Shown here piece by piece: positions 3,483 to 7,424 of a DNA stretch of 7,424 nt. The stretch covers positions 1-7,424 of the IMG/VR virus record IMGVR_UViG_2645728091_000002; one strand, given 5' to 3'. Source of the DNA: a virus (Duplodnaviria; Heunggongvirae; Uroviricota; Caudoviricetes). The position numbers were made by a program, and so were the translations under genes. Each line of letters starts with the position of its first letter. Position 1 is the first letter of the stretch. The notes beneath the pieces are model-generated. The model had not been told where the DNA came from. It was given only the letters and a program-made list of their open reading frames with translations, and made no database searches.

Positions 3483-3508
3483 CGTTATGTATAAATAAGG
3501 AGCACACC

Positions 3509-3673
3509 ATGCAATATGCCATTGCAGGGTGGCCTGTTGCTGGCTGCCCTTCCGAATCTTTACTTGAACGAATCACCCGTAAATTACGTGACGGATGGAA
3601 ACGCCTTATCGACATACTTAATCAGCCAGGAGTCCCAAAGAATGGATCAAACACTTATGGCTATCCAGACTAA
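3509..3673 (+). CDS. cIII: CIII (54 aa), inhibitor of FtsH-mediated CII degradation
   Basis: [54 protein letters not shown] matches lambda CIII as I recall it. AAGGAG lies 6 nt upstream of the ATG at 3509. The 78-aa ORF in the track is an in-frame upstream over-extension. Confidence 0.92.
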   Translation: MQYAIAGWPVAGCPSESLLERITRKLRDGWKRLIDILNQPGVPKNGSNTYGYPD

Positions 3674-6579: not shown

Positions 6580-6731
6580 GCGAAATTAACTAGAAGCCAA
6601 AGATAAAATCATCGCTGAGCAGGAGAAAATCGCTAACGGAGAAAAGACAGTAAGTCAGTATATGAAAACCGCATGATATCATCAGATAAAAATCGATCGT
6701 AAAGCGAAATATTAATACCAGAATAAACGAG

Positions 6732-6789: not shown

Positions 6790-7320
6790 TCATTCAGTAT
6801 CATCACGCGCGGTCTGTGCATATGTTACTACCGCACCTAATGTATTAATTTTCTTTTCAACATAGATAATATTATCGTACTCATAATTGCCATACGGATA
6901 GCAAATGCGAATATTCTCATGTAGATCGGGGTCATCCACCTCAGCTCCAGAACAACTTTTTGAACTACCGGAAGTATACCGATACGGTGCAACATAAGAC
7001 GATGTCTCTCCAGGCAAAAAATAAGTTAGTGTTGTAAGGGGTATAATCAGAAAAAATCCAGCAAATATGCACATCCCTGCATAAACCTTAAGGTATGCTG
7101 ACAGACTCTTCCAGCCGCTTTGTTTTACTATCCCCTTCTTAACCCAAAACAGAGATAACAGAAAAGCTATTCCCATGCTAAACAGAATGTAATAGTGGGA
7201 TATACTCTGATTAAGAAACGTGACCCTGTAAATATCTGCCCGCCACCAGAAGAAAAGGAAAATAAAGATCAGGCCTGAAACTGTCATGCAAATCAAATAA
7301 GGATACGAATCTTTTTTCAT
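6790..7320 (-). CDS. A+T-rich accessory (moron-like) membrane protein, 176 aa, three predicted TM helices plus a Cys-containing C-terminal soluble domain; function unknown
   Basis: Long uninterrupted ORF in strongly A+T-rich DNA, where chance ORFs are disfavoured. Lys-rich N-terminus MKKDSYPY followed by hydrophobic segments LICMTVSGLIFIFLFFWW, YYILFSMGIAFLLSLFWV and VYAGMCIFAGFFLIIPLTTLTYFL. Convergent with the pL operon. Its start codon is 9 bp from the IS10-type end. Confidence 0.7.
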   Translation of the reverse strand: MKKDSYPYLICMTVSGLIFIFLFFWWRADIYRVTFLNQSISHYYILFSMGIAFLLSLFWVKKGIVKQSGWKSLSAYLKVYAGMCIFAGFFLIIPLTTLTYFLPGETSSYVAPYRYTSGSSKSCSGAEVDDPDLHENIRICYPYGNYEYDNIIYVEKKINTLGAVVTYAQTARDDTE

Positions 7321-7328
7321 GTTTAGCG

Positions 7329-7424
7329 CTGATGAATCCCCTAATGATTTTTATCAAAATCATTAAGTTAAGGTAGATACACATCTTGTCATATGATCAA
7401 ATGGTTTCGCCAAAAATCAATAAT
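7329..7424 (+). mobile_element. Outside end of an IS10-type element (Tn10 family); element continues beyond the window, transposase gene expected on the + strand just past 7424
   Basis: CTGATGAATCCCCTAATGATTTTTATCAAAATCATTAAGTTAAGGTAGATACACATCTTGTCATATGATCAAATGGTTTCGCCAAAAATCAATAAT matches the IS10 outside-end sequence as I recall it, including the terminal CTGATGAATCCCC, the near-palindrome around AATGATTTT…AAAATCATT and the TTAAGTTAAGG IHF-site region. Flanking 9 bp TGTTTAGCG (7320-7328) resembles the IS10 target consensus NGCTNAGCN. Confidence 0.85.

Follow-up and report, generated by a model that had tools for sequence, protein, structure and literature searches.

When an insertion sequence comes to rest directly upstream of a gene, the gene can be switched on by a promoter that reads out of the element or switched off by the loss of its own expression signals. 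This question arises at the right-hand end of a 7,424-nt stretch of lambdoid prophage DNA (hereafter the window), where an IS10-type terminus abuts a minus-strand gene for a membrane protein, and where the original prediction had left open whether the gene is now activated by pOUT, the outward promoter of IS10, or silenced. To answer it we identified the IS end and its junction, determined where the gene truly starts, compared the region with intact alleles and with a second insertion at the same site in another strain, and weighed the consequences for expression. The coordinates are collected in Table 1.

The window ends in the outside end of an IS10-left element

The last 96 bp of the window were identical, base for base, to bp 1–96 of the outside end of IS10-left from the Tn10 of plasmid R100, starting with the outside-end sequence CTGATGAATCCCC (longer opening stretch, CTGATGAATCCCCTAATG), which bears out the predicted IS10-type terminus at 7329. 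The matching R100 copy adjoins gltS/jemA in Tn10 and is thus the outer terminus of IS10-left. The same identity was found with many other plasmid and chromosomal sequences, and the differences from IS10-right/ISVsa5 (in Tn10 of R100 and in E. coli c1-17) fell at positions 24, 25, 27, 47 and 83. The inside end of IS10, CTGAGAGATCCCC (from E. coli CP148483.1 and c1-17), is distinct from the sequence seen here. Akin to IS10-left of Tn10 (IS4 family; the transposase is named 'ISVsa5 family' by NCBI) in bp 1–96, in its terminal CTGATGAATCCCC and in the 3′ part of the antisense RNA, RNA-OUT, the copy in the window differs from it in extent, as R100 holds the full element whereas only the first 96 bp are read here. 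By its sequence, such an end may belong either to the left arm of Tn10 or to a solitary copy. In the tetracycline transposon Tn10, IS10L is followed by jemA/gltS, then tetR-tetA and finally IS10R, and an end of the IS10L type is compatible with this layout; solitary IS10L-type copies are, however, also present in E. coli chromosomes (e.g. strain SD134209).

The orientation of the outward promoter could be read from RNA-OUT. The Rfam model for this RNA (RF00240) matched the minus strand from 7424 to 7374 over model positions 20–70 of 70 (61.4 bits, gathering score 41), and the match ended on its 5′ side only where the window ends. In c1-17, where RNA-OUT is complete, it runs from a 5′ end at IS bp 115, the pOUT start point, down to a 3′ end at bp 46. 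Because RNA-OUT lies on the minus strand and has its 5′ end at bp 115 in c1-17, the original placement of pOUT just past the window, in the sense direction of the gene, was right: the outside end faces the gene and RNA-OUT runs toward it. The promoter itself (bp ~115–150), the transposase gene and the second IS end would all lie past the end of the window. Between IS10L and IS10R of R100 the pOUT region (bp 108–200) shows no differences. Two other IS10 promoters, OUTIIp and pIII, lie near the inside end (nt 1000–1230; PMC11481808) and were set aside as irrelevant to the present orientation.

The window starts inside the replication gene O and ends within IS10, two sequences that recur in other prophages or in other IS copies. 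Most likely, then, it represents an entire contig assembled from short reads, with a repeat at either end, which halted inside the repeated IS.

Table 1. Features at the junction between IS10 and the membrane-protein gene
Feature	Position	Strand	Basis
Terminator-like hairpin, 35 nt past the gene's stop codon	6732..6755	-	Consensus scan only: TCGAGGTAATATAATTTACCTCGA, then CTCGTTTATT
Conserved gene for a 176-aa prophage accessory inner-membrane protein	6790..7320	-	ORF with ATG; homologs, PHROG 1416, AlphaFold, hydropathy
9-bp IS10 target TGTTTAGCG	7320..7328	.	Homology break at 7328/7329; 9 bp duplicated around IS10R in c1-17; 5/6 of GCTNAGC
IS10 outside end, left-hand (IS10L) type, bp 1–96	7329..7424	+	96/96 with IS10L of R100; 5 differences from IS10R
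RNA-OUT antisense gene, 3′ two-thirds	7374..7424	-	RF00240, 61.4 bits; transcribed toward the membrane gene
Transposase ATG (expected at IS bp 108) and pOUT +1 (IS bp 115)			Both past the window end

Uninterrupted alleles place the junction to the base pair

Besides phages 434, 2B8 and mEp332, 908 complete E. coli genomes contained an intact copy of the region, which allowed the comparison with uninterrupted prophages that had been proposed as a check. The uninterrupted alleles of E. coli 2013C-4465 and phage 434 were 100% identical to the window from 6600 to 7328/7329 and unrelated to it beyond, and they supplied the native upstream region. The IS terminus is separated from the ATG (7320-7318) by 8 nt (CGCTAAAC on the gene strand), a correction of the 9 bp first given, and the 9-bp target therefore includes the A of the ATG.

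Judged by this exact break point and by the 9-bp duplication of TGTTTAGCG around a complete IS10 in c1-17 (see below), this is a genuine transposition junction with a genuine IS10 outside end. The original prediction had reached the same conclusion from the fit of the flanking 9 bp to the IS10 target preference, an argument of little weight by itself: TGTTTAGCG agrees with the consensus GCTNAGC (NGCTNAGCN) at five of the six specified bases, and 38 sites in the window are at least as good, with 34.6 expected by chance. At consensus position 2 the site has T in place of C, a substitution reported to reduce target use more than 1000-fold in another context (cited by Stoebel 2009, PMC2744996). 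A perfect consensus site, CGCTGAGCA, lies 700 bp from the insertion (6613–6621), the only one in the window.

An IS10 of the IS10L type, standing alone or forming the left arm of Tn10, would thus have transposed into TGTTTAGCG, and simple transposition would give as the other junction ...CTCAG followed by TGTTTAGCG and CCCATAAAATTTT. Junction scans of genome, metagenome and viral contig collections returned no match to the IS10/gene junction of the window, and look-ups with exact proteins (the 176-aa protein, exo and cI) led to no loci other than common ones, none with this junction.

The insertion lies upstream of the true start codon

Whether the IS sits in front of the gene or inside it depends on the start codon, which existing annotations place further upstream. 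In intact prophages the frame is open for 24 more codons, and the product is called as 200 aa by PGAP and, from a TTG, as 188 aa in phage 434; with either start, the IS would fall within the coding sequence. This was ruled out by the homologs, by stop codons in a diverged allele and by the predicted promoter that lies within the 'extension'. All 21 homologs, from Salmonella, Cedecea, Klebsiella and Enterobacter (42–78% identity, 169–180 aa), start MKK.SYP.L and align to residue 1 of the window's protein. In the remnant allele, which is very widespread, TAG and TGA interrupt the frame upstream of the ATG, and the annotated protein is the same 176 aa as in the window. The two E. coli alleles differ at seven synonymous and no non-synonymous positions in the 531-nt coding sequence and at about seven positions (counted by eye from the sequences) in the 72 nt upstream of the ATG; as a pattern, this points to purifying selection on the 176-aa coding sequence. 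Since the stops in the remnant allele, the synonymous-only changes and the shared homolog starts agree, the 176-aa frame is a real gene, its start at 7318-7320 is the real one as predicted, and the IS lies just upstream. The 200-aa and 188-aa annotations appear, from the same alignments, to be over-extended (L002, 5722-5793 and 5797-5967; L003, 5757). The phage 434 counterpart, CPT_434_36 ('putative membrane protein'), is 100% identical to the window in the nucleotides of the gene and is annotated with 188 aa from the TTG, as opposed to the 176 aa supported here by comparison.

The gene also answers to the A+T-rich, minus-strand membrane gene that had been described, with 38.8% GC in the ORF versus 45.8% in the rest of the window, three hydrophobic segments and clear conservation. 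It was present in about 900 (908) of 5,426 complete E. coli genomes, and the exact 176-aa protein in 8,937 blocks of the searched collection. The original prediction had named, as a reason to doubt the gene, an ORF without homologs with intact upstream regions; both homologs and intact alleles were found.

No in-frame fusion arises from the IS. A 57-aa ORF crossing the junction (7211..7384, minus strand), with its start inside the IS10 end, is out of frame with the gene and overlaps it, and is most likely a chance ORF. Further upstream in phage 434, a 56-aa 'putative membrane protein' ORF is annotated; its counterpart in the remnant allele has a frameshift, and it probably does not represent a gene.

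A three-helix membrane protein with a C-terminal beta domain

By hydropathy, the hydrophobic segments span residues 5–28, 40–61 and 74–103. A K/R-rich loop at residues 60–78 contains five basic and no acidic residues, and an acidic C-terminal domain of about 75 aa follows, in which two cysteines are invariant. An AlphaFold model built with 22 homologs (pLDDT 86) showed three long helices and a five-stranded beta domain. The protein is accordingly modelled as three transmembrane helices with a C-terminal beta domain, which the positive-inside rule would place in the periplasm. Its C-terminal 88 aa (residues 89–176) matched PHROG 1416 with E = 1.6e-50, and the 21 homologs share with it the start, the three hydrophobic segments and the two invariant cysteines; PHROG 1416 is listed without a function. 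Searches with the 176-aa protein gave a sub-threshold match only in Pfam and no match in NCBIfam or PADLOC, and Foldseek of the AlphaFold model against BFVD gave E values of 0.01 at best, so that none of the known anti-phage defence or superinfection-exclusion families or solved folds was matched.

The gene is antisense to the pL operon, in a variable slot between a TraR-like gene and xis/int. The position can be called a variable accessory slot because, in prophages whose P22-c2-like repressor is identical, the genes found between the TraR-like gene and xis vary widely (L031-L040, ~15400-18100): variants of the slot hold this membrane gene, an Ead/Ea22 plus DUF2513 set, DUF4222, or a PAPS reductase with a methyltransferase. 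Homologs in Salmonella lie in P2-like prophages, between the portal gene and gpA-side genes (L025/L026, 3001-3531), and those in Cedecea and Enterobacter in non-phage chromosomal contexts (L027-L030); since it turns up in both settings, the family moves as an independent accessory cassette. A 'moron'-type accessory gene would fit the A+T-richness, the antisense position in a variable slot and the recurrence in other contexts, and a role in superinfection exclusion is plausible as a speculation. As IS10 interrupts the transcription path from pL to xis and int, excision of the prophage may be affected, and possibly impaired.

In another part of the window, upstream of a cIII-like ORF, Rfam called a full-length Lambda_thermo element, the cIII thermoregulator RNA (3496-3554, plus strand, 88.5 bits).

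The insertion cuts off a conserved promoter-like element and a putative ribosome-binding element

To define what the gene has lost, we aligned the upstream regions of the two E. coli alleles, of the Salmonella P2-like prophage and of Cedecea. Conserved in Escherichia, Salmonella and Cedecea were TTTTCT, a spacer of exactly 17 nt and TGnTAAATT (TTTCCA and TAAGTT in Cedecea), which as TTTTCT-17-TGgTAAATT lie about 37–70 nt upstream of the ATG. This footprint looks like the native promoter, of the extended −10 kind, and the prediction comes from the conservation, as a simple promoter scan did not call the site. Nearer to the gene, a G-run (GGG/GGGG) at −11..−8, conserved across the three genera, is the only Shine-Dalgarno-like feature, and the IS cuts between it and the ATG. 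Both elements lie beyond the IS, in keeping with the original statement that the native promoter and 5′ UTR have been removed. The start is now preceded by ...AGGGGAUUCAUCAG/CGCUAAAC AUG, in which the nearest G-rich run is the AGGGGA of the IS end, 17 nt from the AUG and too far away for a ribosome site; the predicted lack of a Shine-Dalgarno sequence was thereby upheld.

Two other candidate promoters were discarded. A CII-dependent promoter annotated in phage 434 (TTGT-N6-TTGT) has a spacing to −10-like hexamers that does not fit pRE or pI, and was not relied on. A hybrid promoter at the IS end (TTGATA at 7350-7355 on the minus strand, 17 nt, then CATCAG) matches at 8 of 12 positions, has no T at −7 and was not called by the scan. 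The TTGATA is created by IS10L-specific bases, and a promoter of this kind would start about 2 nt before the AUG.

Expression from pOUT is expected to be low

We infer that the insertion displaced the gene's own promoter by at least 1.3 kb and removed its weak G-run ribosome-binding element at −11..−9. Any remaining transcription would then have to originate inside the IS, where the known source is pOUT at bp 115. On the minus strand from 7424 to 7320, consensus scans found neither a terminator-like nor a promoter-like site, the 53 nt past RNA-OUT included. Most pOUT transcripts would end at bp 46 as the 70-nt RNA-OUT and a minority would read through the terminus, producing an mRNA with a structured leader of about 123 nt that would lack a Shine-Dalgarno sequence and have its AUG partly paired. 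The transcript modelled from bp 115 contained the RNA-OUT stem-loop, an AU-only hairpin (IS bp ~14–37) and a weak helix involving the AUG, of which the U and G had an unpaired probability of 0.17 in the predicted fold. The outcome would be low constitutive expression uncoupled from native control, that is, a knock-down and not an activation.

Transcription from pOUT into adjacent DNA has been described, and an insertion of this kind upstream of otsBA arose under selection (PMC2744996). A review citing Simons 1983 puts read-through at about 10% of placUV5 and also lists acrEF in Salmonella (PMC9330008); expression of adjacent genes from pOUT is credited to Ciampi 1982 and Simons 1983. The otsBA case resembles the present one in that the outside end points toward the gene, pOUT would read in the sense direction, the gene's own promoter has been moved away and the target, having a T at position 2, is sub-optimal. 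At otsBA, however, the IS lies at +12/+13 with translation starting at +56, and the native ribosome site was kept (Stoebel 2009, PMC2744996), whereas here a mere 8 nt separate the IS from the AUG and the Shine-Dalgarno-like G-run is lost.

Because both the promoter and the G-run ribosome site are gone, low pOUT-dependent expression or silencing is to be expected rather than strong activation. Of the two outcomes originally offered, activation appears the less likely on our analysis because the insertion, unlike that at otsBA, separates the sole Shine-Dalgarno-like element from the AUG. We therefore favour, with a probability of roughly 0.6, an insertion of IS10L 8 nt upstream of the true start after which any expression would depend on pOUT and be low and constitutive, in effect a knock-down. 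Initiation without a Shine-Dalgarno sequence might, given the A-rich start (AUGAAAAAAG), work better than assumed here, and the native ribosome site was weak to begin with.

A second, independent insertion at the same base pair

E. coli c1-17 (NZ_CP189959.1) carries a complete 1329-bp IS10-right, an element with a 402-aa DDE transposase, at the identical site and in the same orientation as in the window, with its outside end toward the gene and TGTTTAGCG on both sides. The two insertions share target, orientation and the amino acid sequence of the gene product, and differ otherwise: c1-17 has IS10R in the diverged remnant allele of a degraded prophage beside torI/dsdC, the window IS10L in a 434-type allele of a full lambdoid early region. 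The flanking allele of c1-17 has 15 differences from the window in 729 positions, of which the closest is 22 bp away from the junction, and its upstream flank is that of the remnant allele. As IS type, flanking allele, upstream flank and locus all differ, the two events are independent, and by this comparison IS10 has inserted into TGTTTAGCG on two occasions or more.

Among the 908 complete E. coli genomes with the gene, c1-17 alone has an IS at this site, and it carries about 14 IS10 copies. To judge how much the recurrence means, we set the number of places where IS10 occurs on E. coli chromosomes, roughly 4,300 in 5,426 complete genomes, against an estimated 22,000 or so equally good sites per genome (0.46% of positions), which gave about 0.2 expected insertions at one given site. 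With this expectation, and with a 50% chance that two orientations agree, the recurrence makes no compelling case for a hot spot or for selection.

Weighing the alternatives

Low constitutive pOUT-dependent expression is, as we infer from these comparisons, the most likely outcome for the gene, followed by complete silencing, with selected activation last. Simple insertional silencing, in which the promoter and ribosome site are cut off, read-through from pOUT is negligible or goes untranslated and the gene is off, is possible but doubtful. It would be consistent with the ending of most pOUT transcripts as RNA-OUT (by the Rfam end at IS bp 46), with the distance of AGGGGA from the AUG in the absence of a Shine-Dalgarno sequence, and with the partial pairing of the AUG in the predicted leader; it sits poorly with the read-through from pOUT into flanking genes that has been documented experimentally (PMC2744996, PMC9330008) and with the lack of any terminator-like structure between RNA-OUT and the gene. 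We regard it as unlikely that the insertion was selected for activation, with pOUT providing repressor-independent expression of a useful, for instance phage-excluding, prophage membrane protein. Two independent events at an identical base pair and in the same orientation (IS10L in the window, IS10R in c1-17) would argue for it, the more so as the c1-17 allele is a 2%-diverged remnant at another chromosomal locus and the window holds a 434-type allele in a full prophage; so would the use of a site that is off consensus at a position described as important (Stoebel 2009, PMC2744996) when a perfect one was available 700 bp away, and the presence of the Salmonella homolog in an accessory-gene slot of a P2-like prophage. 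Yet the agreement in orientation is an even chance, c1-17 is rich in IS10, one insertion where about 0.2 are expected is unremarkable, the ribosome site has been destroyed, a single strain of the 908 has the insertion, and the protein matched no defence system. That the repeated same-orientation insertion as such was selected and no accident, pOUT making a silent or regulated moron of the phage-exclusion type constitutive, seems to us quite improbable.

A different objection concerns the element itself, as the window might hold an incomplete IS10, either a single end that remained after a deletion or rearrangement mediated by IS10 or an assembly mis-join where the contig ends. That the sequence breaks off after 96 bp of the IS, in the way contigs from short reads break off at repeats, and that an IS10-mediated rearrangement is seen in the same prophage region of another strain (CP148483.1, below) would be in line with this; the terminus, however, is precise, the break falls at a consensus-like 9-mer, and in c1-17 a complete IS, with its target duplicated, is inserted in just the same way. 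We consider an incomplete element very improbable indeed.

Both the element and the mechanism are already known from the textbook, and the event is of an ordinary kind: one more natural IS10/Tn10 insertion with little reach beyond its strain. If selection did act, the locus would illustrate how, in nature, an IS can rewire an accessory gene of a prophage. The comparison yielded, as by-products, the true start (176 aa) and the likely native promoter of a very widespread uncharacterised prophage membrane protein, and a natural pair of alleles, native and IS10-junction, that can be used to probe the role of the protein.

Other insertion sequences in related prophage regions

In E. coli CP148483.1 (L022, 11670-13113), IS10 lies exactly at CGCTGAGCA and is entered through its inside end. 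Next to its outside end come a 106-bp fragment of IS10 and DNA unrelated to the prophage, and the segment from the membrane gene through int is deleted. Such a layout resembles the outcome of a rearrangement mediated by IS10 in the prophage slot considered here. The very widespread prophage remnant adjacent to torI/dsdC carries a degraded IS4-family element about 290 bp upstream of the membrane gene (L006, 8600-9713; also L004-L013, and L001, 8340-9400), with the ends CTGAGGAATCCCC and GGGGATCCCTCAG, a 277-aa DDE_Tnp_1 fragment and the flanking repeat CGCCGTAGCG.
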